From positions 1,303-65,302 of IMG/VR virus record IMGVR_UViG_3300047533_000002: a DNA stretch of 64,000 nt; one strand, given 5' to 3'. The notes under the pieces are model-generated. The model worked only from the letters and a program-made list of their open reading frames with translations, was not told the DNA's origin and did not search any database. This DNA is from a virus. This document shows positions 12,539 through 64,000 of the stretch, one piece after another. The position numbers were made by a program, and so were the translations under genes. Position 1 is the stretch's first letter. Each line of letters opens with the position of its first letter.

Positions 12539-12590
12539 ATACGAAACGAGCCGCCAGGGCGCGCTGGCGGCCTCCTACAGGGGAATTCCT

Positions 12591-13055: not shown

Positions 13056-13056
13056 A

Positions 13057-14963: not shown

Positions 14964-14981
14964 GGGATAGTCTCTTGGGGG

Positions 14982-19633: not shown

Positions 19634-19715
19634 TATAACATCATCGCCAGGTGCAAAGCCTGGCGGTACACTCGCTAACCCGTATCGCCTATCCAGGCAC
19701 AGAAGCAGCTACGCA

Positions 19716-19982
19716 TCAGATCATCCAGGCAATGCCGTGGCACACATGGTTCACGGTATTCCCCCAGCATACCCACTCACCGCGCATTGCTTCGCCGAGC
19801 AGGGCAAGAGCTGATTCAATCTCGTCAATGACCTGAGCACCCAAGGCGGAACAGTCCACCCAGCCCGTTAAATCGGGTGACCCTTCTAGCCACCTGGCGT
19901 TTTCAACTCGGTAAGCATCGTTCGGTAGGTCTATCTGATCCCATGCCAAATACCGGCTTACACCTGCCGTTCCTGTTTGCAT
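19716..19982 (-). CDS. Possible antisense-oriented small gene
   Basis: 88-aa ORF filling an otherwise empty gap; no family recognised. Confidence 0.35.
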   Translation of the reverse strand: MQTGTAGVSRYLAWDQIDLPNDAYRVENARWLEGSPDLTGWVDCSALGAQVIDEIESALALLGEAMRGEWVCWGNTVNHVCHGIAWMI

Positions 19983-20077
19983 TCCTTCATACTCCGTTTA
20001 TAAAATCCAAACATCAGAGTGCATCTGAATCCATAGGATGCACCCCAGAGTCAATACCGGAGTCGAAACAATCACTT

Positions 20078-47300: not shown

Positions 47301-50300
47301 GTCGCGCGCCGAGCTGGAGCGTGCATCGCGTGCAGGCGTCTCGTTCGGTCGTGAAGTGAAGTCAGAGACAAAGGCTTCTGCTGCCCCGAGCGTTGCTGAA
47401 ACGCAAACACAATCAACTGAAGCGAAACGACCGGCAGAGAGCAGCGGCGCCGAGATTGGCAGCCTCTTCCATGGCACTGCGCGAGCCTTCGATAAATTCG
47501 ACGCCGCAAGGGTTGGCAGGTCGGGCGGCGGCTTCAATCATCAGGGGCCAGGCTTCTACCTGACTGATGACGGCGACGGCTATGCCAAGTTCTTCGCCGA
47601 AAAGGCGGCGGCCAAGGTGTCGCAGATGGACAAGTTGTTGACCGAAGCGCAGGCCGACGAGCTGTTCCATAGCGGCGGAAAAGTGCTGAACGTGTCCATT
47701 GCCGAAGATGCAAAAATGCTGGACCTTCGTAAGCCCGGCGCCGATCCAGAAGTGGTGGATATGTTTTCCCGATCCGTCGGCGATAAGTCGGTCGGTGAGC
47801 AGCTGCGCAAGCGCGTTATGGACTTAGGCTATGACGGTATTGTCTTCAAAGAGCCTAATGCGATCGAGGGCTGGGCTACAAAAGACGGCGCCATTACCGC
47901 CGTGCTTTACGATGAAAGCAAGGCTGTTATCGAGAAGCCGGCCAATACGCCCGCTGCGCCATCCATCGAAGGCGATCGCATCGACAGCGAGTGGTCCCGC
48001 TTCAAATCCGAATCCGGAACCCTTGGCATTCCGCGCGAACAGATGCCGCAGATTAAGGCCGAGCACCGTGGAGCCATGGTCAACTTCCTGAACGCGCGCG
48101 ACATTGCGCATGAGGAACAGACCGTTCCAGCTGACAGCCTCAAACCGACACAGGCAGAGTTTTCTCGCGAGAAGGTGGCGCGGGCCCAGGCCTTCGAAGG
48201 CGGTGACCGCTCCATCCTAGTATCGAGCGATGGTCACGTGCTGGACGGCCATCACCAGTGGATGGCAAAGCGCGAGGCCGGCGAGCCAGTGAAGGTGATC
48301 CGTCTGGATGCGCCGATCCGTGAGCTGCTGTCAACCGTGGCCGAGTTCCCGAGCGCGACCGTTGATCAAGGCGCGGCAACCGCAAATAACCCACAGGGAA
48401 AACCTGCTAACCGGTCGGATAGCGGTATTTCCAAGCCGTCGGCGAACAAGATTTTCACCGAGGACGCCGCCGATAAGGCCCGCGCCCTGCTGCGCTCGAA
48501 GTTGACCCAACTGAATAGCGGCATTGACCCGGAAATCATGCAGGCGGGTATTACCCTGGCCGGCTACCATATCGAGAAGGGCGCCCGCACCTTCGCCGCC
48601 TATGCCAAGGCTATGACCGCCGACCTGGGCGATATCGTGCGTCCCTACCTGAAATCGTGGTATATGGGCGTGAAGTACGACCCACGCGCCACCGGCTTCG
48701 ACGGTATGAGTACCGCTGCCGACGTTGAAGCTTTCGACCTGGCCAAACCTATCGAGGAAACCCGCAATGAACCTACAGAACTGGATCAGCCAAGCCAGGG
48801 AGCACTGGAAAGAGCACCAGCCGAAGAGGTTCCAGGAGCTGAAGGCGAAGGGTCAGCTGGGGAACGCGCTTCGCGAAGCAGCGGAGCGGACGCACGCCGA
48901 AATGAGCGAGCTGGAAGCCAGCGGGATGACGACGCACGAAGCGTGGGAGATGGCGCGGGAGCAGTACCTGTTCCCGCCAGCGGAGAGCGACCAGGACGAC
49001 GAGCAGCCGGCGAGCGGCAGCCTGTTCAACGAGGCGATGGCGGTGATCCAGCCCGAGGACGAGCAGGCGGACCAGACGGAACCGACCCAAGCAGCGTAAC
49101 CGCGTCGAACGGCGTCGAGTCTGGCGACCGTGGCACCAACTACACCATCACCGAAGCCGATGCGATCGGCACGGGCGGCGCGAAGACCAAGTACAAGGCC
49201 AACGTCGAGGCAATCCAGCTGTTGAAAAAGCTGGAGGCTTCCGGGCGCCCGGCTACCGCCGCAGAGCAGGCCGCGCTCGCCAAGTACGTGGGCTGGGGTG
49301 GCATCCCGCAGGCATTCGAGCGCAGCGACAAGAGCGCCAGCAAGGGCTGGGAGCGGGAAGTTAAGGAGCTGCGCGAGCTGCTGACGCCCGAGGAATACAG
49401 CGCCGCTGCGTCGTCCACTAAGAATGCCCACTACACCAGCCCGGAAATCGTCGCCGCCGTGTGGCGCGCCGCTGATCGCCTGGGCTTCAAGGGTGGCCGT
49501 GTGCTGGAGCCTTCTGTGGGCGCCGGCAACTTCTTCGGCCTGATGCCGCACGAGCTGCGCAAGGCATCCGCGCTGCACGGCGTGGAGCTGGATCGCATCA
49601 CCAGCGGTATCGCTGCCCAGCTTTACCCTGAAGCCAAGATCGCCCGCATGGGCTTTCAGGACTACACCATTCCAGATGGTCACTTTGACATCGCCATTGG
49701 CAACCCGCCGTTCGGGCGCGAGAGCCTGTACGACGGCAAGCGCAAGGACATCAGCGGTTTCAGCATTCACAACTACTTCTTCGCCAAGAGCCTGGACGGC
49801 CTGAAGGAAGGCGGCGTCCTGGCCATGGTCGTGACCAGCCGCATGATGGACGTGCCAGGCGATAAGGCGCGCGCCTACATGGACTATCGCGCTGACTTCA
49901 TCGGGGCGATCCGGCTGCCGAATGACGCCTTCATGGCGAAAGCCGGCACCGCCGTAACCACTGACATCATCTTCATGCGCAAGCGCGGCCCAGGCTCGCC
50001 GAATGCCGGTGAGAACTGGATGAAGGTGCGCGATTACACCGACAGCGACGGCAATACCGTGCCGCTGAACGAGTATTTCCACGATCACCCCGAGAACATG
50101 CTGGGTGACTTCGGCGCCTACGGGTCCATGTACCGCGACGGTGAGCCGGCACTTGTTGCCCGAGCCGGCCAGGACACGGCGAAACTGCTGGATCAAGCCA
50201 TTGCGCGGCTGCCGCTTGCCGAGGGCACTGTGGAGCCCGTCGTTAAGCCTGAAACCGCCGCGACCGTGCGCGCTGATAACGTGCGTGTCGGCTCCATGTT

Positions 50301-53300
50301 CGTTGACGGCGACACCGTGAAGGTTCGCGGGGATGACGTGCTAGGCGAAAACACTGCCGAGGCCGTCACCTTCCCGAGCGACAAGGCCCGCGATCGAGTG
50401 GTTGGCATGATCGGCATGCGTGACCAGCTGGCAACCCTGCGCGGCCTGCAGCTGAACCCGAACGCCACCGAGAAGCAGATCGCCACCGCTCGCAAGGCGC
50501 TGAACAACGCCTATGACGCCTTCGTCAAGGAGAACGGCCCGATTAACCTGGACGCCAACAAGCGCTTGTTCAGGGATGATCCATCCTGGCCGCAGCTGTC
50601 CGCCCTGGAAGATGGTTTCGACAAGGGTATCTCTGCTGCCGTGGCCAAGAAGACCGGCGAAGAGGCACGCAAGCCAAGCGCCCAGAAAGCCGCGATCTTC
50701 ACCAAGCGCACCCAGTCGCCATACCAGGCACCCGAAAGCGCCAGCTCAGCCAAGGACGCCTTGGTATCGTCGCTGGCCGAGACTGGCCGCGTTGACCTGG
50801 GGCTTATGGGCCGCCTGTACGGGAAGAGCGAAGACGCCATCGTCAAGGAGCTGGGCGACCTAGTGTTCCAAGACCCTGCCAAGGGCTACGTTACCCGTGA
50901 CGAGTACCTGTCTGGCAACGTGAAGGCTAAGCTGGCCCAGGCACGCCAGGCTGCACAGAAGGATGCCGCGTTCGCCCGCAACGTCGAGGCGCTGGAGGCA
51001 GTCCAGCCGCGCGACATCGAGGCCGTGGATATCAACGTGAAGCCGGGCGCCGCCTGGATACCGAACGATACCATGGGCGGCTTCGCCAACCACATCGGAG
51101 AAGGCGGCAAGGCCCGTGCTATCTACAACCCGGCCACCGCCAAGTGGTCGATCCTGGGCCTGGATTCCAGTCGTTCGGCAGATGCGCGCTGGTCTACCGG
51201 TCGCGTCGATCTTAAATCCATCCTGGAGGCTGCCGCCAACCAGAAGACGCTGCAGGTCTTCGATAGCCATTCCGACGGCACCCGCACGCTCAACGAGACC
51301 GAAACCCAGCTTGCCAATGACAAGGTAAACGCGGTCAAGGAGGAATGGAGCCGCTGGGTCTGGGCCGATGACGCCCGCCGTGAGCAGCTTGCCGGCATCT
51401 ACAACAACGTGTTCAACACCAACGTCGCCCGCGAGTACGATGGCTCGCACCTGACGTTCCCTGGCAAGGTCGGGAACGACATCATTGCCCTGCGCCCGCA
51501 CCAAGCCAATGGCGTGTGGCGCATTGTCCAGTCTGACACCACCCTGGCTGACCACGTTGTTGGCGCGGGCAAAACCTTCACGCTCATTGCCGGCGCCATG
51601 GAACTGCGCCGCATGGGTCTGGCCAAGAAGCCGATGTTCGCCGTGCCGAACCACCTGGTCGGCCAATGGGCCGCCGACTTCACCAAGCTTTACCCAGGCG
51701 CCAACGTGCTGGCCGCGACCAAGAAGGACTTCGACAAAGAAAACCGCAAGCGCCTGTTCGCCAGGATTGCGACCGGCGATTGGGATGCGGTGATCGTCGC
51801 GCATTCCAGCTTCGGCAAGGTTGAGGTCGAGCCCAAAGAGCAGGCCGCGTTTATTGAAGAGCAGATCGCCGACCTGGACAGCTCGATCGAACTGATGCGT
51901 CAGACCGATGGCGAGAAGAGCCGGAACGTCAAGGACGTGCAGAAGCGGCGGGATGCGCTGCGCGAGAAGCTGAAAAAGCTGCTGGACGCCGACAACAAGG
52001 ACGACAACCTGTACTGGGGCGAGCTGGGAATCGACGCCCTGTTCGTGGACGAGGCGCACGAGTTCAAGAACCTGGCGTTCTCCACGTCGATGAACCGCGT
52101 GGCCGGCCTGGGCAACCAGCAGGGCAGCCAGAAGGCGTCCGATATGTTCCTCAAGGTGCGCCAGGTGCTGAACGCCACGGGTGGGCGCAACGTCGTTTTC
52201 GCCACCGGTACGCCGATCAGCAACACCATGGCCGAAATGTACACCATGCAGCGCTACCTGGATTACTCGAACCTGAAGGCGCAGGGCATCAATCACTTTG
52301 ATGCCTGGGCGCGCATGTTCGGCGAGGTCGTGACCGATTGGGAACTGTCGCCATCCGGCAAGTACAAGATGAACAGCAGGTTCGCCAAGTTCGTGAACAT
52401 GCCCGAGCTGATGCAGCGGTACACGCACTTCGCTGACGTGATCAATCGCGACGACATCAACCGCATGCTGGCGTCCCAGGGTAAGAAGCTGCCCGTTCCG
52501 AAGCTAGCCGGGGGCAAGCCGACCAACGTTGTAGTGCCGCGCAGCCCTGAGCAGGCCAAGTTCATCGGGGAGCCGATCAAGGACGAGGCTGGCAACGACA
52601 CCGACAACTACCCGCAGGGCTCGCTTGTCTGGCGCTCGGAGAACATGCCGAAGAAGGCCGAGAAGGGCGCGGACAACATGCTCAAGATCATGGGCGATGC
52701 GCGTAAGGCCGCGCTCGACATGCGCTTGATCGATCCGAGCTACCCGGATTACCCGAACAGCAAGGTCAACCACGCGGCTGGTCGCATCAAAGCCATCTAC
52801 GACGAATGGCATGCCGATCGTGGCACCCAGCTGGTGTTCATCGACCTGTCCACGCCGAAGAACGCGAAAGCCGCCGAGGCTGCACGCCTGCGCGACCTGG
52901 TTGAGCGTGCCGAGCAGGGTGATGAACAGGCCATCACTGACCTGGATAAGGTGAGCCCGGACGAGATGATGGCCCTGGACGGCGATTTCTCTGTCTATGA
53001 CGACCTGAAGCAGAAGCTGATCGATCGCGGCATTCCTGAAGCGGAGATCGCCTTTATCCACGATGCCAAGACCGAGCTGCAAAAGGACGAGCTGTTCGGC
53101 AAGGTCCGGTCGGGCCGCGTTCGCGTGCTGTTCGGCTCAACCGCCAAGATGGGCGCCGGCATGAACGTACAGGACCGCCTGGTCGCACTTCATCACCTGG
53201 ACGCCCCGTGGCGGCCGTCCGACCTGGAGCAGCGAGAAGGCCGCATCATCCGCCAGGGCAACAAGCTGTACGAGCGCGACCCGGAAGGGTTCGAGGTGCG

Positions 53301-56300
53301 CATCAACCGCTATGCCACCAAGCAGACCCTGGACAGCCGTATGTGGCAGACGATCGAGGGCAAAGCCAACTTCATCGAGCAGGTGCGCAAGGGCAACACC
53401 GGCACCCGCGAGATCGAGGACGTGGCCGGCGAAGCCGCCAACGCCGCCGAAATGAAAGCGGCATCGAGCGGCAACCCCCTGATCCTGGAAGAAATGAGTC
53501 TGCGCCAGAAGGTCCGCAAGCTAGAGACCGAGCGCCAGGGCTTCGACCGGGAGCAGCACCGCCTGCGCGATAGCATTCGTTACGCCAAGCAAAGCGCCGA
53601 TCGTGCCGACGTGCTGCTGAACGAGCTGCGCCAGGACGCCAAGCGTGCGCAGCCCTCCGAGTTCGAGATGACCATCGACGGTCAGGCCTTCGACAAGCGC
53701 AAGGACGCTGGCGAGGCACTGATGGCCAAGCTGGCAGAGATGGAGGCCAGCCAGGCCGAGACTGCCACCCTGGGCAAGTTTGGCGACTTCACGCTGCACG
53801 CTGAACGGGTTGGTGCCGAACGCTTTATCGCCACCCTGGAAGGCGCTGGCACGTATGACGCGAAGATCGAGATCGGCAACGACCCGATGGGCGCCATCAT
53901 GCGCATCACCAACAGCGTGAAAGACCTGGGAGCAGCGATCGAGCAGGTAGAGCGCAACAAGGCGCGTGCCGAGGCAGACATTCCCAAGCTGGAAGCGCAG
54001 GTAAGCAAATGGCCGAAAAGCCAGGAGCTGAATGGAGCACGGTCGCGCCACGCCGAAGTGCTGGAGCAGCTGAAGCCGAAGAAGACCGTGCAGACCGCGC
54101 CAGCGGAAGCAGCCGGTAACAAGGCGAGCATGGGCGATTCCGCATCCCTGGGCGAAACCCTGCGCGCCAGCGACCTAGGCCGCATCCTTGGAACCATGAT
54201 CGACGGCGGCCAGGTCGTGCTGCACGATACTGCGCCAGACGGCATCCATCCTCAAACCCAGGGGTGGACCGACACCAATGGTAAAATCCATCTGGTGGCA
54301 GATCAGCTGACCCCTGAAAGCGCGCCGGCAGTGCTCTTGCACGAGGCGTTCCACTCAGGCGGCGAGGCCCTGGTCAAGACCGATAAGTGGATGAACCTGA
54401 TGGCTCGCCTGAATGGTTTCTACAAGGCCGCCGAGGCCGGGCGCTTGTCGGGCGACTGGGCCGAGGCCTTCCGCCGCGTGGAGAAGGCCAAAGCGGCAGG
54501 CGATACCATGTCCCGCATGCGCTCCATTGAAGAGCTGGGCGCCTATGCGATCGAGAACTACGAGCGCGCGCCGGCAGGTATCAAGAAGTGGGCGCAGAGC
54601 ATCATGGGTGCCGTGAAGGACTTCCTGTACCGCCGCTTCGGCATCCAAGCCGGCTCGGTCACCCCAGCCCAGCTGCGCGCCATGGCTGTATCGGCCCTGC
54701 GCAGTGGCAGGACCGCGCCGCGCGAGGAAGCAGCGTTCAGCCGAAACCAGGATGATGCGCCTACCGATCGCGAGGTGGACAGCTGGTTTAGCCGAGCCCT
54801 GACCGACGCCATGGCCGGCGCCAAGAGCAAAGGCCAGTTCAGCCTCCTGGCCACCGCGCCCATGGACCGCATGATCGAAGAGCTGGCCGGCAATAACATG
54901 CACGCCACCGAGTACCTGAAGCTCAAGCGTGACATGGACGCCTACCGGGCCAAGAAGCACGCCGAGTTCGATACCACGGCACAGAAGTGGCTGAAGCTGA
55001 ACGTCACTGACCGGCAGGGAGCGAAGGAGATGGCGCGCATCATGCACGATGCAACCATCGCCCAGGCCGACCCGGCTGAGTCGTTCTCGTCGATCATCAA
55101 CAAGATCGATCAGCAGATGATGGACAAGCAGCCGAACAGCGAGGCCGGCAAGGCCGCGTTCGAGAAGAAGGTGCGCGACGATGCGCGCCGGTCGGCGCAT
55201 GCTGAGTTGTCCAAGCGCTTCAAGGCGCTGTCGCCCGAGCTGCAGGCTCACTATCGCGAGGTGCGTGACACGTACAAGCGGATGACCGAAGAGCTGGACC
55301 AGATCCTGATGGACAACCTGGCAGCAGCAATCGACATCCACGGTCGGAAAGCGGAGCGCACCTACGAGAAAGAGCTGGCAGAAATCAAGGACGAGGGCCT
55401 GACCGGTGACGCCAAGAAACAGGCCGAAGCCGCTGCGCTGTACAAGTACAACACCGCCATGACCAAGCTGCGCTGGAACAAGAAGGCTCGCTTGACCATG
55501 ATGCGTCAGCAGTTCGAGGCCAACCGCCTGGAAGGCCCTTACTTCCCGCTGGCTCGCTTCGGTGACTACTTCGTGACCGTTCGCGACCGCGACACTGGCG
55601 AGGTGATCAGCTTCAGCCGGTTCGAATCCCGCAAGGAGCAGCAGCGGTTCGCGGCTGACGCTAAGCGCCTGGGCAAGGTGCAGACCGGCCTGCTGAGCGC
55701 AGACGCCGAGCTGCGTGGCTCCGTTGATCCGCGCTTTGTGTCCGATGTTGAGGACATCCTGGGCGGCGCCGACGTGCCTGATTCCGTCAAGGACCAGGTA
55801 TGGCAGCGTTACCTGGAGAGCATGCCCGACATGAGCATGCGCAAGGGCTTCATCCACCGGAAGAACCGTGAAGGCTATACCCAGGATGCCTTGCGCGCGT
55901 TCGCTTCCAGGATGTTCCATGGCGCTCACCAGCTGGGCCGCCTCAAGTTCGGCGCCCGCATGCAGGAGTCGATCGACCTGGCCAAGGAGTTTGCCGGCAA
56001 GAGCAAGGAGCCGGAGCGTGACACGGCTGTGGTCAATGAGATCAACCGTCGCCATGACTACGTGATGAACCCCAAAGGCGGCCCGCTGGCGCAGAAACTG
56101 ACCAGCGCTGCCTTCATCTATCACCTGTCGATGTCGCCAGCCGCCGCCCTGGTCAACCTGTCGCAGACCGCAATCATCGGCATTCCGGTCATTGGCGCCA
56201 AGTTCGGTACGGCCAAGACCATTGCCGAGATGGGCAAGGCTGCGACCCACTTTGTCACCGGCAAGGGACACGCGGAGAATTCGAAGTCCCTGACCGACGA

Positions 56301-57570
56301 CGAGCGCCGGGCCATGCGCCAGGCCTACGAGGCCGGCATCATCGATAGCAGCCAGGCGCACAACCTGGCAGGTGTTGGCGAAACGGGAGTCGAATACAGC
56401 GCGGTGCGCAATAAGGTGATGGGCGTCATTGCCTGGCAGTTCCATCAGGCCGAGCGGCTTAACCGGGAGGTGACGTTCCTGGCTGCTTACCGTCTGGCTC
56501 GTGCTGACGGCATGACCCACGCCCAGGCAGTCGATGAAGGGGCGCGCCTAACCTACAAGACCCACTTCGACTACTCGAACACCAACCGCCCGAGAGTCAT
56601 GCACGGCGACGTGGCCAAGGTGGCGCTGGTCTTCCGCAACTATCAGGTCAACATGCTTTGGCGCCTGTTCCGCGACACTCACCAGGTGCTCCACGGCGAC
56701 AGCGCGGCCCGGAAGGAAGCCGTTCACCAGCTCGCCGGCATCAGCGGCATGATGGCAATGAGCGCGGGCGTTAAAGGCGTGTGGCTGTATGGCTTGGCCA
56801 TGGCCATCGCCAGCATGATCTTCGGTGACGATGCGGAAGAGCAGTTCAAGAAGGGCACGGTTGACCTGCTGGGGCCCACCACCGCTGGGCTGCTGCTGAA
56901 TGGCATCCCAGGCCACCTGACCGGTACGTCGCTGTCGGGCCGCATCGGTATGCCAGACCTCTGGTTCCGTTCGCCAGATCGTCAGCTCGAAGGCAAAGAC
57001 GAGTTCAACTACTGGCAAAGCCAGTTGCTGGGTGCCTTGCCTGGCATTGCGCAGAACGTGTGGACGGGCTGGGGCCAGATCGGCGACGGCAAGGTCTATC
57101 GCGGCGTCGAAACCATGTCGCCCAAGTTCGTGAAGGACATCATGCGCACGGCGCGGTTTGCCGAAGAGGGCGCCACTACCCTGCGCGGCGATCCGCTGGT
57201 CAGCGAGTTCAAGGGCACAGAGCTGGCGGCGCAGATGCTGGGCTTCACGCCGGCAGTCCTGGCCGAGCAGTACGAGCGCAATAGCGCCCTGAAGAATGCC
57301 GAGAAGCGGATCATGGATAAGCGCCGTGGGCTGATGGACAAGTACGCCACTGCCCACAAGCTGAAGGACGAAGAGGGTAAGGCTGATGCCATGGCCGATA
57401 TCAAGGCGTTCAACCGCGAGCATAAGCAGGTGGCGATCACGCCGAACACGATCCGCCAGTCGTTGCAATCGCGTCGGCGCTACAGCGATCGGACAGAAGG
57501 CGGCGTGAACATCAATCCGAAGCTGAACCGCGAACTTCGTGATAATCTAGGCCAAGCGATCTACCGTTGA
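44392..57570 (+). CDS. 4,392-aa DarB-like polyvalent virion protein: SLT, ART-like, ParB-like, N6-adenine MTase, SNF2 helicase, metallopeptidase, LPD38-like C-terminus
   Basis: QESRFNP/GLMQ (SLT); FHGT..GPGFYLT..GYDGIVF (ART-like); LKPTQ..LDGHHQW (ParB-like); VLEPSVGAGNF and IGNPPF (MTase); VGAGKT and FVDEAHEFKN (helicase); LLHEAFH. Confidence 0.92.
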   Translation: MANAPLSPLENVLSEQQQSLGISDFKFSEPERAPATAKAGTAPADLMPLFEGAAQKYNVPVNILLGLADQESRFNPRALGQQTKWGRAKGLMQYLDSTAQGMGINPYDPAQSIDAAAKQLSERLGKGYSMIDAVREHFAGPDRKQWGKKTEAYGNEVMQRAAKFEGVPLVGANGQPVQSPTGDMPMAADMAPGANADAGMQPGQLDEAGKRKLAQDMLTEMNAAEPGRYSLATPEQIAAAQSKLPGTADQAQGPDGFWSATGKALSNIPGNFQEAAGGLLRYLGEGVDDNTLYFNAQKLGVLKKLQEDGVITMGPSKGGLITTQVPYLPDGKMADISNTARYLRENAPQLFSKEQQEVMNGIKPNAVAQKGIDLAADARKDRAEINPDGPLAKYGSMIISSTAEMAPALLAGIVTRNPNMTLGMIGTQVYGQSYEKGREKGLNPDEAGTYAAAQAAAEAIPSALPVHAILAPGKNFFSGLFKAGLAESVQEGITGALQAGIDKGTIDPNMTWAQAREQIIDSMIVGGGAGVAMRAGVDGGRRAREAMRSPEARLGEAMQAEVDNAQPSTTADAEARAALDPNTQPMQQQAEAAPVEVAPAKDVPAQAQPEQPGPSGPLGRALERALPTDPVVEAPQVVEQAAVEQQAPVERVEESAAPAASEFMGPTGSTINVAPAGVEPFQATIEGYTDGEVVLRDQEGNRFQVSQAELQPAEQIPKAAEEAAPAVEETQQAQPDQVAEAAPAEQERAQADQQQPARREPKTYDQMDEPELRERLKYLARQAKSTGWDKKLVTERKKVEAAIDAIAAKSTPEVAEPVAEQPAQQVEQKTDKPAAEPVTAELPQAEAPKWFGTQEKADAYVAKKNLADTHEVKLNGRRFEVVPKAEVSQPDTAVAEPAPVQDAPQIKPDPNVTGHVNRARKLMGANVGDFVRPSSDIGYSTGGREYFINKIDKNGTVHVTNQEDGSSTSWSRAELERASRAGVSFGREVKSETKASAAPSVAETQTQSTEAKRPAESSGAEIGSLFHGTARAFDKFDAARVGRSGGGFNHQGPGFYLTDDGDGYAKFFAEKAAAKVSQMDKLLTEAQADELFHSGGKVLNVSIAEDAKMLDLRKPGADPEVVDMFSRSVGDKSVGEQLRKRVMDLGYDGIVFKEPNAIEGWATKDGAITAVLYDESKAVIEKPANTPAAPSIEGDRIDSEWSRFKSESGTLGIPREQMPQIKAEHRGAMVNFLNARDIAHEEQTVPADSLKPTQAEFSREKVARAQAFEGGDRSILVSSDGHVLDGHHQWMAKREAGEPVKVIRLDAPIRELLSTVAEFPSATVDQGAATANNPQGKPANRSDSGISKPSANKIFTEDAADKARALLRSKLTQLNSGIDPEIMQAGITLAGYHIEKGARTFAAYAKAMTADLGDIVRPYLKSWYMGVKYDPRATGFDGMSTAADVEAFDLAKPIEETRNEPTELDQPSQGALERAPAEEVPGAEGEGSAGERASRSSGADARRNERAGSQRDDDARSVGDGAGAVPVPASGERPGRRAAGERQPVQRGDGGDPARGRAGGPDGTDPSSVTASNGVESGDRGTNYTITEADAIGTGGAKTKYKANVEAIQLLKKLEASGRPATAAEQAALAKYVGWGGIPQAFERSDKSASKGWEREVKELRELLTPEEYSAAASSTKNAHYTSPEIVAAVWRAADRLGFKGGRVLEPSVGAGNFFGLMPHELRKASALHGVELDRITSGIAAQLYPEAKIARMGFQDYTIPDGHFDIAIGNPPFGRESLYDGKRKDISGFSIHNYFFAKSLDGLKEGGVLAMVVTSRMMDVPGDKARAYMDYRADFIGAIRLPNDAFMAKAGTAVTTDIIFMRKRGPGSPNAGENWMKVRDYTDSDGNTVPLNEYFHDHPENMLGDFGAYGSMYRDGEPALVARAGQDTAKLLDQAIARLPLAEGTVEPVVKPETAATVRADNVRVGSMFVDGDTVKVRGDDVLGENTAEAVTFPSDKARDRVVGMIGMRDQLATLRGLQLNPNATEKQIATARKALNNAYDAFVKENGPINLDANKRLFRDDPSWPQLSALEDGFDKGISAAVAKKTGEEARKPSAQKAAIFTKRTQSPYQAPESASSAKDALVSSLAETGRVDLGLMGRLYGKSEDAIVKELGDLVFQDPAKGYVTRDEYLSGNVKAKLAQARQAAQKDAAFARNVEALEAVQPRDIEAVDINVKPGAAWIPNDTMGGFANHIGEGGKARAIYNPATAKWSILGLDSSRSADARWSTGRVDLKSILEAAANQKTLQVFDSHSDGTRTLNETETQLANDKVNAVKEEWSRWVWADDARREQLAGIYNNVFNTNVAREYDGSHLTFPGKVGNDIIALRPHQANGVWRIVQSDTTLADHVVGAGKTFTLIAGAMELRRMGLAKKPMFAVPNHLVGQWAADFTKLYPGANVLAATKKDFDKENRKRLFARIATGDWDAVIVAHSSFGKVEVEPKEQAAFIEEQIADLDSSIELMRQTDGEKSRNVKDVQKRRDALREKLKKLLDADNKDDNLYWGELGIDALFVDEAHEFKNLAFSTSMNRVAGLGNQQGSQKASDMFLKVRQVLNATGGRNVVFATGTPISNTMAEMYTMQRYLDYSNLKAQGINHFDAWARMFGEVVTDWELSPSGKYKMNSRFAKFVNMPELMQRYTHFADVINRDDINRMLASQGKKLPVPKLAGGKPTNVVVPRSPEQAKFIGEPIKDEAGNDTDNYPQGSLVWRSENMPKKAEKGADNMLKIMGDARKAALDMRLIDPSYPDYPNSKVNHAAGRIKAIYDEWHADRGTQLVFIDLSTPKNAKAAEAARLRDLVERAEQGDEQAITDLDKVSPDEMMALDGDFSVYDDLKQKLIDRGIPEAEIAFIHDAKTELQKDELFGKVRSGRVRVLFGSTAKMGAGMNVQDRLVALHHLDAPWRPSDLEQREGRIIRQGNKLYERDPEGFEVRINRYATKQTLDSRMWQTIEGKANFIEQVRKGNTGTREIEDVAGEAANAAEMKAASSGNPLILEEMSLRQKVRKLETERQGFDREQHRLRDSIRYAKQSADRADVLLNELRQDAKRAQPSEFEMTIDGQAFDKRKDAGEALMAKLAEMEASQAETATLGKFGDFTLHAERVGAERFIATLEGAGTYDAKIEIGNDPMGAIMRITNSVKDLGAAIEQVERNKARAEADIPKLEAQVSKWPKSQELNGARSRHAEVLEQLKPKKTVQTAPAEAAGNKASMGDSASLGETLRASDLGRILGTMIDGGQVVLHDTAPDGIHPQTQGWTDTNGKIHLVADQLTPESAPAVLLHEAFHSGGEALVKTDKWMNLMARLNGFYKAAEAGRLSGDWAEAFRRVEKAKAAGDTMSRMRSIEELGAYAIENYERAPAGIKKWAQSIMGAVKDFLYRRFGIQAGSVTPAQLRAMAVSALRSGRTAPREEAAFSRNQDDAPTDREVDSWFSRALTDAMAGAKSKGQFSLLATAPMDRMIEELAGNNMHATEYLKLKRDMDAYRAKKHAEFDTTAQKWLKLNVTDRQGAKEMARIMHDATIAQADPAESFSSIINKIDQQMMDKQPNSEAGKAAFEKKVRDDARRSAHAELSKRFKALSPELQAHYREVRDTYKRMTEELDQILMDNLAAAIDIHGRKAERTYEKELAEIKDEGLTGDAKKQAEAAALYKYNTAMTKLRWNKKARLTMMRQQFEANRLEGPYFPLARFGDYFVTVRDRDTGEVISFSRFESRKEQQRFAADAKRLGKVQTGLLSADAELRGSVDPRFVSDVEDILGGADVPDSVKDQVWQRYLESMPDMSMRKGFIHRKNREGYTQDALRAFASRMFHGAHQLGRLKFGARMQESIDLAKEFAGKSKEPERDTAVVNEINRRHDYVMNPKGGPLAQKLTSAAFIYHLSMSPAAALVNLSQTAIIGIPVIGAKFGTAKTIAEMGKAATHFVTGKGHAENSKSLTDDERRAMRQAYEAGIIDSSQAHNLAGVGETGVEYSAVRNKVMGVIAWQFHQAERLNREVTFLAAYRLARADGMTHAQAVDEGARLTYKTHFDYSNTNRPRVMHGDVAKVALVFRNYQVNMLWRLFRDTHQVLHGDSAARKEAVHQLAGISGMMAMSAGVKGVWLYGLAMAIASMIFGDDAEEQFKKGTVDLLGPTTAGLLLNGIPGHLTGTSLSGRIGMPDLWFRSPDRQLEGKDEFNYWQSQLLGALPGIAQNVWTGWGQIGDGKVYRGVETMSPKFVKDIMRTARFAEEGATTLRGDPLVSEFKGTELAAQMLGFTPAVLAEQYERNSALKNAEKRIMDKRRGLMDKYATAHKLKDEEGKADAMADIKAFNREHKQVAITPNTIRQSLQSRRRYSDRTEGGVNINPKLNRELRDNLGQAIYR
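48767..49099 (+). CDS. Overprinted 110-aa gene in the +1 frame inside the giant polyvalent gene
   Basis: GAGGA RBS 8 nt before ATG 48767; GC3-rich preferred codons in this frame; globular-looking MNLQNWISQAREHWKEHQPKRFQELKAKG...AWEMAREQYLFPP. Confidence 0.7.
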   Translation: MNLQNWISQAREHWKEHQPKRFQELKAKGQLGNALREAAERTHAEMSELEASGMTTHEAWEMAREQYLFPPAESDQDDEQPASGSLFNEAMAVIQPEDEQADQTEPTQAA

Positions 57571-57776
57571 TCAGCGGACGTGCCGGGCTGGCGCCCAATC
57601 TGGTCCGGCACGAATGGGATGGAACCCACTTTCCTCACCTGAGCGCGAAGACAGGCGCGCAATTGTGGCTTACCTGTCATCGTTTTCTGTTTGGGTTTTG
57701 CAAACAGTCGGTTTAATATCCCGGCATATCAAAACGCCAGCGCAAGACGTGCTGCCAACCTTACCGGGGGCACGTC

Positions 57777-58373
57777 ATGCCGAATAGTATCACCGAGACA
57801 GACTACAAAACTGCCGGGCAGACGCTCGGCGCCGCCGTATCTGCTATCAAAGCCGTAGCGTCCGTGGAAAGCGCAGGCGCTGGCTTCCTTCCTGACGGCA
57901 GACCAAAGATTCTCTTCGAACGCCACGTCATGTACGCCCAGCTGAGTGACAAGCTCGGCAAGACGAAGGCTGATCAGCTCGCTTCCAAGCATCCCGACAT
58001 CGTGAACCCGGTATCCGGTGGCTACAGCGGCGGCGCCAAGGAGCACGACCGCTTGTCCCGTGCCGCAGAAATCGATCGGGAGTGCGCCCTGTCGTCGGCA
58101 AGCTGGGGAGCCTTCCAGATCATGGGTTACCATTGGAAGAGCCTGGGGTATGCCAGCCAGCAAGCTTTCATCAACGCCATGTATGCCAGCGCTTCGGCCC
58201 AGCTCGATTCATTCGTGCGGTTCATCAAGGCTGACCCAGCGCTGCTGCGAGCGTTGAAGGCGCTGGACTGGAAAGCGTTCGCCCGCCGCTATAACGGCCC
58301 GGCCTACGCCAAGAACCAGTACGACACGAAGATGTCCGATGCGTATCGGAAGTTCGCCGGGGGTGCCGCCTAA
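57777..58373 (+). CDS. Endolysin, N-acetylmuramidase (DUF3380 family)
   Basis: AVASVESAGAGF..GRPKILFERH, SASWGAFQIMGYH, FARRYNGPAY. Confidence 0.92.
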   Translation: MPNSITETDYKTAGQTLGAAVSAIKAVASVESAGAGFLPDGRPKILFERHVMYAQLSDKLGKTKADQLASKHPDIVNPVSGGYSGGAKEHDRLSRAAEIDRECALSSASWGAFQIMGYHWKSLGYASQQAFINAMYASASAQLDSFVRFIKADPALLRALKALDWKAFARRYNGPAYAKNQYDTKMSDAYRKFAGGAA

Positions 58374-58723
58374 TGGACCCGGAAAACCTGCAAAACATCG
58401 GCGGCGGTGGCATGTGGTCGTACATCGGTTCGGCAGTCGGTGCGCTGATCCTCGGCGGCGTTACTGGCGTCCTTGCCCTTCGCAAGCGTCTCTCGTCGGA
58501 CGCTACCACCATCGCCAGCGACCGGGCCGAAGTAGACATCATCAAGACGTTGCAGGACGACAACAATTCGTTGCGTGCCAGCCTGAAGGAAGTGAACGCG
58601 GAGCGCGACAAGCTCTGGAAAGAAATGGCGGAAATGACCGCCACCCTGAAAATCATGGAATACCAGATGACCGCTATCAAGGAAGAACTTGCGGCGCTTC
58701 GAGCAGAAAGGGGTAGAGCGTGA
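58373..58723 (+). CDS. Single-TM plus coiled-coil lysis-cassette protein (holin/antiholin candidate)
   Basis: N-terminal hydrophobic segment then coiled coil. Confidence 0.55.
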   Translation: MDPENLQNIGGGGMWSYIGSAVGALILGGVTGVLALRKRLSSDATTIASDRAEVDIIKTLQDDNNSLRASLKEVNAERDKLWKEMAEMTATLKIMEYQMTAIKEELAALRAERGRA

Positions 58724-59058
58724 TGACGTGTGAGAATTCTGGCAAAGCCAAGCGCCTCAAGCATTGGCAAATATCGGCGATCGTGGCTTTCATTCTGGCC
58801 GCTGGCGCCTGCGCCGGGATTCCCCTTGGCGTTATGATCGTGCGCGAAGATGCTGAAAAGGCGATAGCCGAGCTGCGCAGCACCTATGCAGAAGCGTCTG
58901 AGGCTCGCTTGCAGACCCTTAATGTGTGCCTGGCAAACCAGGGCAAAGCCGCCATCACAGCATCGGAGGCTGCCAAGGTTGCCGGTGATGCGGCGAAAGC
59001 GGCAGCCAAGGCCGTGGATGCGGCAGCTGGGAAGAAAGAAACGGAACAACGTCCATGA
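58720..59058 (+). CDS. Single-TM lysis-cassette protein
   Basis: WQISAIVAFILAAGACAGIPLGVMIV. Confidence 0.55.
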   Translation: MMTCENSGKAKRLKHWQISAIVAFILAAGACAGIPLGVMIVREDAEKAIAELRSTYAEASEARLQTLNVCLANQGKAAITASEAAKVAGDAAKAAAKAVDAAAGKKETEQRP

Positions 59059-59585
59059 CCGGGAAGATCACAGCAGCGATCGCGGTTGTTGCCTTCCTGG
59101 CAGGCTGCCTGGTGGCCGGCATCGCGCAGGGCTGGCGCTATGAGGCAAAGCTCTCCAGACAGACCGGCGCCCACGCAACCGAGTTGAAGATCATCAGCGA
59201 CAAAGCAGCGGCCCAGCGTGATCAGGCGCTGGCTGATCAGCAGGCGATGCAAGACAAAGCGCAGGCCGCCGACCAGAAGCACATCCAGGAACTGACCAAT
59301 GAACAAGCCGAAAACGAACGCCTACGCCGCCTGTATGCTGGCGCCAACGCTAATGCTGATGCTCTTCGCCAGCGGTTGCGCATCCAGGCAAAGTGCCCAG
59401 CTCCAGCAGCAAGCGGCAGTTTGCCCGCGCCCGCAGGCGCCGGCAGCCTGGGCGATGCAACCAGCGTCGAACTCTCTGATGCTGCTGGACAAGACGTTTT
59501 CGATATCCGCCGAGGAATAATCGAGGATCAGCGCAAGCTGGCGTACCTCCAGGAATACGCCAGAACTTGCTCGGGGCAGCCCTAA
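59055..59585 (+). CDS. Rz-like i-spanin
   Basis: N-terminal TM, GWRY, coiled coil, LRIQAKCP, KLAYLQEYAR. Confidence 0.85.
   Translation: MTGKITAAIAVVAFLAGCLVAGIAQGWRYEAKLSRQTGAHATELKIISDKAAAQRDQALADQQAMQDKAQAADQKHIQELTNEQAENERLRRLYAGANANADALRQRLRIQAKCPAPAASGSLPAPAGAGSLGDATSVELSDAAGQDVFDIRRGIIEDQRKLAYLQEYARTCSGQP
59299..59520 (+). CDS. Rz1-like o-spanin lipoprotein nested in Rz
   Basis: Lipobox FASGC, Pro-rich CPRPQAPAAWAMQP. Confidence 0.8.
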   Translation: MNKPKTNAYAACMLAPTLMLMLFASGCASRQSAQLQQQAAVCPRPQAPAAWAMQPASNSLMLLDKTFSISAEE

Positions 59586-60776
59586 TCAGGCTGCCTTTTT
59601 CTTTACCCTCCTGACTCCGGTGGCCGTCATCTCTTCTCGCTCGAACCCGTTGTATTCGGTTCGGTTGATCTTCGGCGAGGCCTGAGCCTTGGCATCGATG
59701 GCCACCTGTAGCCACTTCCAGCCCGCATACTTATCACCATGCCCGTTCAGGTGCGTATAGCGGCGCAGGCTATTCCAGTCCCTGTGGCCACTGACGGCGG
59801 CGACACGAGGGATTTCCCAGCCGATTTCAAACAGACGCGACACGCCTTCATGCCGCAGGTCGTGGAAGTGCAGATCTTCGATATCGACCCAACGCAGGGC
59901 CCGCAGGAAGGAAGCGCCCAGGGCGTCACCCTCATAGGGGAAGATACGGTCTTCCAGGCGCGGCATTGATTCCAGGATCGCCCAGGCTTCGTCGGGCAGC
60001 TTGCAGGTAACATCGTTGCCCCACTTCATGCTGGGGTTCTTCATGTTGCGGACAATCACCGTGCGGTTCTCGACGTCCACGTCGTCCCACACGATCCGCA
60101 GGATTTCATCCATGCGCCGGGTGCTGAATATGGCGAAGGCGATCAGCTTGATAAGCGGCAGCGCCCAGGGACGGCGCCTGTGCATGTCGGCGGCATGGGC
60201 CATGAGCCGGTCCAGCTCTTCCAGCGTAGGGCGCCGGGTGCGCTCCTTGGGCCGGCCCCACATGCCGATCTTGCGCATGACGGCCTTGGCCTTGCGAACG
60301 TCCTCATGGTTTAGCCGGTAACCCCAGGCGGGCTCTGCCACGGCGAAGACGGACGAGATGATGGCGATGTCGTTACTGGCGGTCTGCTTTTTAACCCCAT
60401 CGACGGTGATGCGCTGGTTCGCATAGTCCACCAGGTGCGAGCTGCCAATCTGCGATGCCGGCACCTTGCCCAGTTCGGATCGGGCAATCTGGCGCAGCGT
60501 GCATTCCTTCGTCCTGCCGATCGGCTTGTGCACGACAATCTCGGTTAGGTATCGGTCGATGATCGCTGCCAGCGTGGGATCATCTCCGGTAGCTATTTCC
60601 AGGCCGCCCGGCGCCTCAAGCTCGGCTTCGCGCTTCTTTGCCCAGGACTGGGCAGCCTGTTTGCGGTCAAAGGTCTGCGACTCCGAATAGACCTTCTTGC
60701 CATCTCGCATAATGCGAATTTGCGCGGTATAACCAACACTTCCGTCCTTGCGCTTGCGCGGCGTTATCGTCGCCAT
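59586..60776 (-). CDS. int: Tyrosine recombinase, dusA-associated integrase type
   Basis: MATITPRKRKDGSVGYTAQIR; catalytic STRRMDEI, FHDLRHEG, GHRDW..LRRY. Confidence 0.93.
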   Translation of the reverse strand: MATITPRKRKDGSVGYTAQIRIMRDGKKVYSESQTFDRKQAAQSWAKKREAELEAPGGLEIATGDDPTLAAIIDRYLTEIVVHKPIGRTKECTLRQIARSELGKVPASQIGSSHLVDYANQRITVDGVKKQTASNDIAIISSVFAVAEPAWGYRLNHEDVRKAKAVMRKIGMWGRPKERTRRPTLEELDRLMAHAADMHRRRPWALPLIKLIAFAIFSTRRMDEILRIVWDDVDVENRTVIVRNMKNPSMKWGNDVTCKLPDEAWAILESMPRLEDRIFPYEGDALGASFLRALRWVDIEDLHFHDLRHEGVSRLFEIGWEIPRVAAVSGHRDWNSLRRYTHLNGHGDKYAGWKWLQVAIDAKAQASPKINRTEYNGFEREEMTATGVRRVKKKAA

Positions 60777-60787
60777 CCTGACCTCAT

Positions 60788-60906
60788 TTGCTACAAAACT
60801 CACGCCGTCGAGGCGCGTAGCCCGGCGTAGCAAAATTTGTAGCAAGGCGGAAGGAAAAACGGTCGGAAACGGCCCGAAACAAGCAAAAAACGGCCCGCGT
60901 AGCAAA
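60788..60906. repeat. Inverted/direct repeats between int and dusA (integrase arm-type sites)
   Basis: TTGCTACAAA 60788-60797 / TTTGTAGCAA 60836-60845; CGTAGCAAA at 60826 and 60898. Confidence 0.6.
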
Positions 60907-60921
60907 CGCGACCAGGTGTGA

Positions 60922-61971
60922 TTGATGGAAAATAAGACAGAAAAAACAGATATTTACGGCCAAAAAGTCTTTGCCGTTGCGCCCATGATCGACTGGACGG
61001 ATCGGCATTGCCGTTTTTTCCATCGACAGCTCTCGGGACGCGCTCTGCTTTACACAGAAATGGTCGTGGCCGATGCGATTATCCACGGGCCGCGGGAGAA
61101 GCTGCTGTCCTTCGATGATGCCGAGCATCCCGTTGCCTTGCAGCTCGGCGGCTCGGACCCGGCCAAGCTCGTCGAGGCGGTCAGGATCGCTTCGGACTAT
61201 GGCTATGACGAGATCAACCTCAATGTCGGCTGCCCCTCGGACCGGGTGCAGTCTGGAACGTTCGGGGCTTGCCTCATGCAGACGCCCGAGGTGGTCGAGG
61301 CCTGTGTCTCGGCGATGAAGCGGGTAGCGACGGTGCCGATGACCGTGAAGTGCCGGATCGGGGTGGACGAGCAGGAACCGGGTGATGTGCTGCCAGACTT
61401 TCTGGCCCGGATGATCGCGGCGGGAGCCGATGCAATCTGGATCCATGCGCGCAAAGCCTGGCTGAAAGGCCTGTCGCCGAAGGAAAACCGCGAAATCCCG
61501 CCGCTCGACTATGATCTAGTGTACCGGATGAAGCGGGAGAACCCGCAGGTCTTTGTCGGCATCAATGGCGGGATTGCCGATCTCGACCAGGCGGTGGCGC
61601 ATCTCGCGGTTATGGACGGCGTCATGCTCGGGCGGGCGAGCTATCACAATGCGACGCTGTTGACCGAGGTCGACCGGCGGATCTATGGCGACGCCGCCGC
61701 GCCTGTGGACTGGGACCGGGTGCGCGATGCGATGATCGCCTATGCCGAGCGGGTGATCGCATCCGGCGGGCGGCTCAACCATGTGACGCGGCATATGGTC
61801 GGGCTGTTCCAGGGCTTTGCCGGCGCCCGGCGCTATCGGCAGATCCTGTCGTCCGAGGCGACGAAGCCGGGTGTATCGCCCAGGCTGATTGCCGAGGCCT
61901 TTGCGGCGGTCGACATTGCGGGCGGGCCGAAGACACAGGGTACGCCCGGGACATCGGCTGCTGCCGAATAA
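60922..61971 (+). CDS. dusA: tRNA-dihydrouridine(20/20a) synthase DusA; 5' end probably supplied by the prophage
   Basis: VAPMIDWTDRHCR, EINLNVGCPSDRVQSG, HARKAWLKGLSPKENR. Confidence 0.96.
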   Translation: MMENKTEKTDIYGQKVFAVAPMIDWTDRHCRFFHRQLSGRALLYTEMVVADAIIHGPREKLLSFDDAEHPVALQLGGSDPAKLVEAVRIASDYGYDEINLNVGCPSDRVQSGTFGACLMQTPEVVEACVSAMKRVATVPMTVKCRIGVDEQEPGDVLPDFLARMIAAGADAIWIHARKAWLKGLSPKENREIPPLDYDLVYRMKRENPQVFVGINGGIADLDQAVAHLAVMDGVMLGRASYHNATLLTEVDRRIYGDAAAPVDWDRVRDAMIAYAERVIASGGRLNHVTRHMVGLFQGFAGARRYRQILSSEATKPGVSPRLIAEAFAAVDIAGGPKTQGTPGTSAAAE

Positions 61972-62050
61972 CCTGGCACTGCTTTCCGGCGAATTTCAGG
62001 CTCCAGATGCGAAAATGGCGTCCCGGGGGACGCCATTCGAAAACTTTAAA

Positions 62051-62263
62051 TCAGGCAGACTGGATGTTGACGGCCTTGGGGCCCTTGCCCATGCGGTCCG
62101 GCTCGGTGTCGAAGGTGACCTGCTGGCCATCCTGCAGGGTCTGCAGGCCGGAGGCCTGGAGCGCCGAGATGTGGACGAATACGTCCTTCGCGCCGCCTTC
62201 CGGGGTAATGAAGCCAAAACCCTTGTCCTGGTTGAAGAATTTAACGGTGCCCTTGGTGGCCAT
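62051..62263 (-). CDS. cspA: Cold-shock protein (CspA family, alphaproteobacterial type)
   Basis: [25 protein letters not shown]; GGAGAG RBS-like; long 5' leader. Confidence 0.95.
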
Positions 62264-62754
62264 GGGAGAGTTCCTTGTTCCCGTGTTTGTCGTCTTCGCC
62301 ACGGCCGGCGGACCGGAAGCGGCTGCGTGAAGTTCCGCCGAAACGGAACCGTCGAGGGATCGCGATAACGGGGAAAGAACGTCTACCGGCGGGAGAAAGC
62401 CCCCATGACCGCAGCTGCGGTCCATACAAGTCAGTCCAGTCTCCGGGATCATTTCTGCCCGAACGCGACAAGAGGTAGGGTCATTTCCGCAGGTTGGCAA
62501 GTACGAAAAGTCACACTGGTCGGCGCAAAATTGTCTCAACGGACTGAATTCCTTGAGATTTGGTGGGTGGTAACGATGCCATCCCAGGCTCCGGGCCGGC
62601 TGGGCATGGCCTGAGTATGGCTTGGGCATGGGCTGGGCCGGCGATCGCGACCGGGGACGACGCGGTGTTCCGTCTTGAAGCGGCCGCCATCCCGGTTTAG
62701 GGGAAGGACGGGCCGGGGCAGGGCAGGACCGAGCGGACGCGGGAGTGCAAGAGT

Positions 62755-63381
62755 ATGGCGAAGACGGGTGCCGCGGTGATAGATCCTTACGAAATGCTGG
62801 GCGTGACGCGCGATGCCGACGAGGCCGCGATCAAGGCTGCCTATCGCAAGCTGGCCAAGAGCGCCCATCCGGATGGCGGCGGCGATGCCGAGGCATTTGC
62901 TAAGATTTCCACCTGCTACGAACTGCTGAAGGACCCGGTGCGCCGCCGGGTGTTCGACGATACCGGCTACGATCCGCAGCTTGCCGAACCCGCCGATCTC
63001 AAGGGCGTGATGGTGCTGGAAACGCTGGTCAACGACATGATCCTCGATGAGCGTGAGCCGGGCAGTTTCGATCCGGTGGCGGGGCTGCGGCGCAAGCTGA
63101 CCGACGACATCCTGAAGGCGCGCTTCCACATCCTCGAGCTGGAGCGCCACCGGGCGCGGGTGCGCAAACATCTCGACCGGCTCGGCCGTCGGCCCGATGC
63201 CGATGTGCTCGGCTCGATGCTGCGTGCCCGGGCGCAGTCGATCACCGATGCGATCAAGGCATCGGAAGCACAGATCGCCGCGATCGAGCGGGCCTATACC
63301 ATGCTCGAGGGCTATTCCTACGAGATGGAGCCGCTGGCACCCGAGATCGAGGTCGAGGAGCTGCCGAAGGCGGCCGAATAA
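62755..63381 (+). CDS. J-domain (DnaJ-like) protein
   Basis: [23 protein letters not shown]. Confidence 0.9.
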
Positions 63382-63657
63382 GTCTGTCCCGAGCCTGGCT
63401 GGCAGCGAATTTTGACGTTCTTCATTTTTCTTGGGAAAACTGTCAATCAATATTGACAGTACGCGCCTGCATTTTAGGGTACCGTAATACTCCGGTGATA
63501 TGCCCAATGTTGCAGACCGTATCGGCACGATCACCCCAGTAGGACTGGCATGGCATGGGTCCGTCGCACCCCGCGCAGCTTGCGCGCCGGTTGTCTCCAC
63601 GTGATCCATGAGCCCCTTGGAGGGGTGACCTGACACCAACAGCTGGGGAATCCAAAC

Positions 63658-63951
63658 ATGCATCACGACGGCTTCGTCTCGCGATCGGTCGAGACGATTG
63701 TATACTTCCCACTCGGCCATCGCCGGCACCTCGTTCGCACAACCGCCCGACGGTTGGACCAATTGAATGGGGACGCCGCGACGGATTTCTGGAAATCGCT
63801 GTGCGGCCGCCTCAAGGCCGACCTTTTCGCGGCCGGCCGGTCCTACGAGGACGTGCGCCGCGAGATCCTGGCCTTCCAGGCGGCGGTGCATCGGGAGCTT
63901 TTGCTGCTCTACGAGCCGGACGGCGACACGCGGAGCGCGGTCGCCACCTGA
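63658..63951 (+). CDS. Conserved Rhizobiaceae-type hypothetical protein (DUF6074-like)
   Basis: YFPLGHRR...AADFW pattern; host codon usage. Confidence 0.6.
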   Translation: MHHDGFVSRSVETIVYFPLGHRRHLVRTTARRLDQLNGDAATDFWKSLCGRLKADLFAAGRSYEDVRREILAFQAAVHRELLLLYEPDGDTRSAVAT

Positions 63952-64000
63952 CATCATCGTCGCCATCCCGTTGAAGCCTTCGGCATGCCCGGACCCGCAC

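Follow-up and report, generated by a model that had tools for sequence, protein, structure and literature searches.

How does a prophage whose nearest cultured relative is a Pseudomonas phage come to lie directly against what looks like a Rhizobiaceae chromosome? The question is raised by a 64,000-nucleotide (nt) stretch of DNA (the window), bases 1303–65302 of the 67,598-bp IMG/VR record IMGVR_UViG_3300047533_000002 (record class provirus, CheckV completeness 100%), in which phage genes run into the host gene dusA. The original prediction, made from the sequence alone, had read the locus as a Pseudomonas-type prophage joined to a Rhizobiaceae chromosome, through either a host jump or mosaic phage or a mis-assembly. 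Here we report the anatomy of the junction, the identities of host and phage, and the free form of the phage attachment site (attP) in a sibling phage. We conclude that the element is very probably a genuine temperate podophage of ~62.4 kb, of the Bcep22 / PEp14 / Itty13 group and probably intact, integrated at the 5' end of dusA in a Rhizobiaceae chromosome. Both the phage group and the integration system are known, and the element adds a new, uncultured member to each.

The junction at dusA

The integrase gene (int) adjoins the 5' end of dusA across a spacer of 148 nt, and the junction is made up of the following parts.

1–60966: prophage body; collinear with the free sibling G405, gene order as in Itty13
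59586–60776, minus strand: dusA-type tyrosine integrase, 396 amino acids (aa), PF00589; transcribed away from dusA
60788–60905: attP-derived arm between int and dusA, with four GTAGCAA repeats, one of them inverted
60925–60966, plus strand: phage-supplied surrogate 5' end of dusA, 14 codons, MENKTEKTDIYGQK; aligns with the sibling attP and with no Rhizobiaceae dusA
60967–60995, plus strand: core or crossover interval of the right junction (attR), 29 nt, encoding VFAVAPMID-; overlap of host and phage attP similarity
60925–61971, plus strand: intact hybrid dusA, 348 aa, PF01207 (7e-75), with the VFAVAPMIDW motif; 88–93% identity to Rhizobiaceae DusA

Against 16 Rhizobiaceae loci, no alignment of the window is possible upstream of position 60967; downstream of it the identity is 75–95%. 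The phage side was read from a sibling found by searching IMG/VR with the integrase, IMGVR_UViG_3300013925_000008 (G405; 62,145 bp, CheckV completeness 100%), which carries a 90%-identical integrase in mid-contig and is collinear with this phage (49 kb aligned at a mean of 87% nt identity; integrase 90%, TerL 93%). The reverse complement of G405 matches the window at 92% from 49586 to exactly 60995; 86 unmatched bases follow, and then an 89% match to the extreme left end of the record, where a PrtN-like gene lies. Since host similarity begins at 60967 and phage similarity runs up to 60995, the crossover took place within these 29 nt, and it follows from this position that the new promoter region and the 14 N-terminal codons of dusA come from the phage. 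Unlike this prophage, G405 has the free attP form, replaced segments in the early region, and a core with ATGATG instead of ATGATC. Its attP is laid out as int, arm, surrogate dusA start, core, second arm and prtN, and its surrogate start, also of 14 codons, is identical to that of the window at 9 of 14.

The first 14 codons of dusA (60925–60966) have a GC content of ~29%. This AT-richer part had been thought to encode residues of Rhizobiaceae type, a view that does not hold: the 14 codons match the sibling attP and differ from the native N-terminus MTTETDFLTRDIPGPKPYGRA of JGI protein P0376, a DusA that is 96.4% identical downstream of the core and has 21 native codons where the window has 14. 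When the differences private to the window were counted along dusA, no excess was seen after 60970, and hence no sign of a phage-derived part past the core. The proposal of a genuine integration module at dusA is supported, the attP arm, core and host sequence following one another exactly.

Of the six GTAGCAA copies in the 64-kb window, four are packed into the 118 nt of the arm (60788–60905), and they are probable arm-type integrase sites. In G405, despite its 90%-identical integrase, GTGCCA/TGGCAC repeats replace GTAGCAA at the matching places and occur on the far side of the core as well; arm-type sites seem to have been swapped between these close relatives. A sigma-70 scan of the int–dusA spacer found no promoter consensus.

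The right end of the element is at 60995. To the left, the prophage extends 1,302 nt beyond the window to the record end and then ~82 nt further, which gives a total of ~62.4 kb, comparable to the sibling and to Logan contigs of 61.4–62.5 kb that encode proteins of the same 90% clusters and belong to the same phage lineage as G405 and this prophage. Both ends of the record coincide exactly with stop codons, that of the first gene on the left and that of the last gene on the right, so it was cut computationally from a larger contig. When all 67.6 kb of the record were scanned with 11-mers for the junction sequence, no second copy (attL, the left junction) turned up, because the record begins ~82 nt within the left end of the element, cut at gene boundaries. 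As an IMG/VR provirus call, the record thus spans something other than the element: on the left it omits ~82 nt of phage together with attL, and on the right it holds ~5.3 kb of conserved Rhizobiaceae chromosome, up to a gene for an XRE-type helix-turn-helix protein (positions 1–342 of locus L001 and 3225–3599 of locus L002).

The PrtN-like gene at the extreme left end of the record matches PF11112 (3e-30), and a metagenome scan with its product returned relatives at 80–89% as best matches. Integrase and PrtN of the same 90% clusters occur together on further contigs of 2.4–62.5 kb. With int and prtN side by side, as in the sibling and several contigs, we have the attP form, an indirect sign of excision to a circle.

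The host chromosome

Beyond dusA, the window continues with three host genes.

62051–62260, minus strand: cspA, PF00313; 94–100% identity in relatives, at the same position
62755–63381, plus strand: J-domain protein gene, PF00226; 88–95% identity in relatives
63658–63951, plus strand: DUF6074 gene, PF19551; 71–90% identity in four relatives, at the same place

A search with DusA returned 542 relatives, and the best 80 of the 542 were nearly all from Rhizobiaceae, headed at 88–93% identity by Rhizobium rhizophilum, Rhizobium sp. Root274, R. wuzhouense, R. rosettiformans and Peteryoungia aggregata. The J-domain protein shares a 90% cluster with proteins of Rhizobium sp. Root274, R. wuzhouense and R. 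glycinendophyticum. The order and orientation dusA–cspA–J-domain gene, sometimes with the DUF6074 gene, are kept in more than 20 Rhizobiaceae genomes, and the non-coding flank up to the record end is conserved in relatives at 70–93% nt identity; an Rfam search of the flank gave no match. The right flank is a Rhizobiaceae chromosome of the Rhizobium rosettiformans / wuzhouense / Peteryoungia group. With 88–100% protein identity and a conserved gene order, the earlier recognition of the FAVAPMIDW-type DusA, the CspA and the J-domain gene as Rhizobiaceae-like was correct. Exact-sequence look-ups placed phage proteins (capsid, RdgC, muramidase, Rz and PrtN) and host proteins (DusA, J-domain protein and DUF6074 protein) on one JGI/IMG contig of 1,844,713 bp. 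GC content is 60.7% in the prophage, 61.8% in the flank and 60–62.6% in the DNA of the relatives, as against 65.5% in Itty13.

A repeat of ~170–200 nt, without an Rfam match, occurs in two copies ~2–3 kb to the right of the window end (1886–2057 and 2925–3130 of locus L002). The same repeat is found in relatives, in direct or inverted orientation, and many related draft assemblies stop a few kb past dusA. This suggests a dispersed intergenic repeat.

The phage and its relatives

The phage was identified from the following genes.

6176–7306, plus strand: RdgC–FtsK-gamma fusion gene of the early region, PF04381 (8e-34) and PF09397 (3e-20)
21833–23476, plus strand: terminase large subunit (TerL); 93% identity to the sibling, 66% to Agrobacterium tumefaciens, 65% to Itty13, 64% to Skulduggery
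27958–29064, plus strand: major capsid protein of the N4-gp56 family, PF13252 in all relatives; best named match Bradyrhizobium elkanii, 69%
44392–57570, plus strand: giant virion protein, 4,392 aa, PLxRFG / DarB-like, in a single open frame
57777–59585, plus strand: lysis cassette, PF11860 (2e-67) and PF03245 (6e-14); 41–58% aa identity to the Itty13 cassette
57777–58373, plus strand: muramidase of the lysis cassette
58373–58723 and 58720–59058, plus strand: small membrane-protein open reading frames of the cassette
59055–59585, plus strand: Rz of the cassette, with Rz1 embedded at 59299–59520
59573–59597: terminator-like hairpin between the converging Rz and int

RdgC and the Rz gene with its embedded Rz1 were thus present as first described. 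An N4-gp56-family capsid, a PLxRFG / DarB-like protein of more than 4,000 aa before the lysis cassette and a genome of ~60–65 kb are all found here, as in Bcep22 / PEp14 / Itty13-like podophages. In a DNA search of cultured phages, Pseudomonas phage Itty13 (Ittyvirus, NC_070969) came first, with 81% identity across 5.8 kb of the giant gene and 74.5% across TerL and portal, followed by Bcep22-like, F116-like, Erwinia (Stean) and Klebsiella (SopranoGao) phages; the giant gene also matches genes annotated as PLxRFG- or DarB-like in SopranoGao, VvAW1 and H66. Itty13 has a genome of 61.8 kb, and about 30 of about 60 genes are common to both phages, collinear and at 35–77% aa identity, among them TerL (65%), portal (61%), capsid (67%), the giant DarB-like protein (77% over 42%), the lysis cassette and early genes. 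It differs in its host, its GC content (65.5% against 60.7%) and its integrase, which lies in a different orientation and has no match to the present one at an E-value of 1e-5. The genus rule of the International Committee on Taxonomy of Viruses asks for ~70% or more nt identity across the whole genome. At the DNA level only 13–22% of two 24-kb query pieces align to Itty13, at 74–81% nt, which places the phage outside the genus Ittyvirus.

Bcep22-like (Lessievirus), F116/H66-like (Hollowayvirus) and Ralstonia GP4-like podophages likewise have genomes of ~60–65 kb with a giant PLxRFG protein before the lysis genes. Their integrases (Ralstonia GP4-like, Pseudomonas F116/H66-like and Burkholderia Bcep22-like) are 54–56% identical to that of this phage, those of H66, GP4 and BcepMigl being at 55%, and therefore the dusA-type integrase runs through the wider group. 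In H66 a PrtN-type excisionase is annotated and the integrase is 55% identical; its capsid (26%) and TerL (29%) are remote, and the orientation of int relative to prtN differs.

Compared with G405, the early and regulatory region (window 1636–20826) is a mosaic in which blocks of 70–92% identity alternate with unalignable segments (for example 7887–9094, 10214–12541 and 17094–19433), and the late region is 84–92% identical throughout, save for 33547–35354 in the tail-fibre gene.

Integration at dusA and its proposed mechanism

Genomic islands with dusA-associated integrases (DAI) carry an integrase at the 5' end of dusA and an altered dusA 5' sequence (Farrugia et al. 2015, NAR 43:4547, PMC4482086). 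They are bounded by semi-conserved 21-bp direct repeats (attL and attR), 64% contain a prtN homologue and about half are prophages (PMC4482086). Their hosts are Alpha-, Beta- and Gammaproteobacteria, with A. baumannii D1279779_RGP05 and P. protegens Pf-5 Prophage 03 as examples (PMC4482086). The prophage described here shares with them a tyrosine integrase beside the dusA 5' end, homologous to other dusA-site integrases, an element-supplied dusA 5' end, a semi-conserved core (found at attR) and a prtN homologue. Unlike the Pseudomonas DAI representatives, to which it is ~55% identical, its integrase forms a clade of its own with an Agrobacterium integrase.

Prophages at dusA have also been recorded in Sinorhizobium medicae and S. 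meliloti (Phi2_WSM419 and Phi3_SM11; PMC5537653). Together with islands of Rhizobium sp. Root274, Peteryoungia aggregata and Ciceribacter, they share host family and integration gene with this element. The Root274, P. aggregata and Ciceribacter islands have integrases of 45–50% identity, and their 10-kb flanks are without the lysis or giant gene of this phage; in all, integrases directly upstream of dusA in six Rhizobiaceae genomes are 45–50% identical to this one. Of the 13 genomes closest to the host, several carry an integrase at this position, one retains an integrase remnant, and in two the dusA 5' end is of the island type with no integrase beside it. About half of the 13 thus hold an integrase or a remnant, and the clade has used this site repeatedly. 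In three related genomes (~9,700–10,050 of each locus) the island-type dusA 5' end resembles that of integrase-bearing neighbours: L004 and L008 lack an integrase, and L073 keeps no more than a fragment of residues 3–61. These dusA 5' ends look like scars of decayed dusA elements.

The mechanism that we propose is as follows. The phage's own dusA-specific tyrosine integrase would recombine the attP core with codons 22–30 of the native dusA. The attP carries a surrogate dusA start: an upstream region of phage origin, then 14 codons, then a core of 29 nt in which the conserved stretch coding for VFAVAPM(I/M)D is copied. Recombination in the core would swap the host promoter and first 21 codons for those of the phage and leave the intact 348-aa hybrid DusA at attR, presumably transcribed from the phage arm. 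The native dusA 5' fragment, encoding MTT(E/N)(T/A)DFLTRDIPGP.PYGRA, is expected at attL, just past the PrtN-like gene, with a core of the form GTNTTTGCCGTNGC..ATGAT.GACTG; in R. rosettiformans the gene upstream of dusA is phosphatase-like (9248–9880 of locus L013). The PrtN-like protein is the likely excision factor, as the annotation in H66 suggests, and the GTAGCAA repeats of the arm (60788–60905) would be the arm-type sites that the integrase binds.

Pseudomonas or Alphaproteobacteria?

Named relatives were sought in a collection of 5.8 billion proteins, and trees were built with IQ-TREE. The integrase, which is 96% identical to protein P0001 and 90% to that of the sibling, has its best named relative in A. 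tumefaciens (63%, against 53–57% for Pseudomonas), and so does TerL (66%, against 64% for Skulduggery). For the capsid, B. elkanii is followed by Aminobacter, Agrobacterium, Devosia, Ensifer, Nitrobacter, Pseudomonas and Erwinia phages, all at 64–66%. The A. tumefaciens relatives of integrase (63%), TerL (66%) and capsid (66%) lie on one 425,402-bp contig (P0002, P0188 and P0248), which probably carries a related prophage; with all three on one contig, that prophage is as close as Itty13. In the capsid tree the A. tumefaciens capsid groups with a Pseudomonas sp. protein and not with other alphaproteobacterial capsids.

In the integrase tree, this integrase is sister to the Agrobacterium integrase (support of 99 in the Shimodaira–Hasegawa-like approximate likelihood ratio test, SH-aLRT) and stands outside a 100-supported clade of Pseudomonas, Azotobacter and H66; the approximately unbiased (AU) test rejects forcing it into that clade (p = 0.0003, for a clade chosen once the tree had been viewed). 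The phylogeny that had been suggested as a check on the host jump thus excludes it from the Pseudomonas clade. The capsid falls outside a 100-supported clade of Itty13, Skulduggery and Erwinia; here the AU test was set aside as evidence, the constraint having omitted two rows inside the gammaproteobacterial clade. TerL puts the phage together with metagenomic relatives on a deep branch of their own, and elsewhere in that tree alpha- and gammaproteobacterial hosts are interleaved. Structural modules related at 67–73% nt were found in 6 of 400 sampled Rhizobiaceae genomes, and no related prophage in the five nearest Rhizobiaceae genomes. The phage belongs to a cluster of relatives at 78–99% identity, none of them labelled Pseudomonas, and no Pseudomonas-derived block was found in it, mosaicism in the general sense being present as in all such phages. 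The lineage is resident in Alphaproteobacteria and is no recent arrival from Pseudomonas.

Alternative explanations

That an assembly chimera joined a free phage, or the prophage of another host, to a Rhizobiaceae dusA via the shared conserved core is extremely unlikely. The join does lie inside a conserved 29-nt stretch, and a join through homologous sequence would likewise leave dusA in frame; but exact shared runs are at most 11 nt, the longest between the sibling attP core and the attR/host sequence being of that length, which is far below usual assembly word sizes. What makes a chimera, and with it the mis-assembly that had been considered, so improbable is that phage and host proteins share one 1.84-Mb contig, and the junction has exactly the structure of known dusA islands at a site repeatedly used in the clade. 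Even a chimera would imply a phage attP built for this dusA. A recent jump of a Pseudomonas phage lineage into Rhizobiaceae, aided by the conserved dusA attachment site, is very improbable as well. Itty13 is the nearest cultured phage, with about half of its genes in shared order, PrtN has 66% identity with its counterpart in Pseudomonas phage H66, and the sibling attP core has the ATGATG form. Against this, the identity to Itty13 is low (35–77% aa, with 13–22% of the DNA aligned at 74–81%) and its integrase does not match; the A. tumefaciens prophage is equally close (integrase 63%, TerL 66%, capsid 66%); integrase and capsid each fall outside the Pseudomonas clades in their trees; the GC content fits a Rhizobiaceae host and not Itty13; and the relatives at 78–99% include none labelled Pseudomonas. 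The best named relatives of integrase, TerL and capsid being alphaproteobacterial is largely the result that had been named beforehand as speaking against a jump from Gamma- to Alphaproteobacteria. More far-reaching still would be a traceably recent crossing between the two classes, with the dusA core as a class-spanning landing site, the ATGATG attP core as a relic of a former host and the difference in arm repeats as ongoing re-tuning, for which we see little likelihood.

An older mosaic, in which an alphaproteobacterial int–attP module sits on a backbone common to gammaproteobacterial phages, is compatible with a genuine alphaproteobacterial prophage and is possible, if less than probable. 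Itty13 has the same backbone, but its integrase is another one and is oriented differently; in H66 a related integrase (55%) goes with a distant capsid (26%) and TerL (29%); and the TerL, capsid and integrase trees are incongruent. However, the same integrase family occurs in Bcep22-, F116- and GP4-like phages of ~60–65 kb, so it may be ancestral to the group, and similarity to the sibling is unbroken at the integrase boundary (92% across 49586–60995).

Several observations weigh against our own conclusion of a resident alphaproteobacterial prophage integrated at dusA. Over shared genes, Itty13 is closer than six sampled Rhizobiaceae prophages, both in TerL (65% against 41–47%) and in the giant protein (77% against 53–59%), and the early and lysis genes match Itty13 only and not these six. 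The Pseudomonas clade used in the AU test of the integrase was named after the tree had been viewed, which tempers that result. The core of the sibling attP is ATGATGGACTG, as against ATGATCGACTG in all Rhizobiaceae sequences, and we take the sibling's form to be that of gamma- and betaproteobacterial DusA. Finally, attL and the left host flank fall outside the record, so that one of the two junctions was read.

In summary, what had been flagged as a cross-class prophage junction is an ordinary dusA integration. The name Pseudomonas-type is right in that Itty13 is the best cultured-phage DNA match, and too narrow in that many members are alphaproteobacterial prophages; it reflects the bias of cultured-phage collections. 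The value of the analysis is mainly housekeeping: the real boundaries of the element are fixed, and an uncultured Rhizobiaceae member and a free-form sibling that defines attP are added to the Bcep22 / PEp14 / Itty13 group. There is also a modest general lesson: members of this phage group, with their dusA integrase, live in hosts of several proteobacterial classes, with alpha- and gammaproteobacterial hosts interleaved in the TerL tree, so the host can hardly be told from the best matches among cultured phages.

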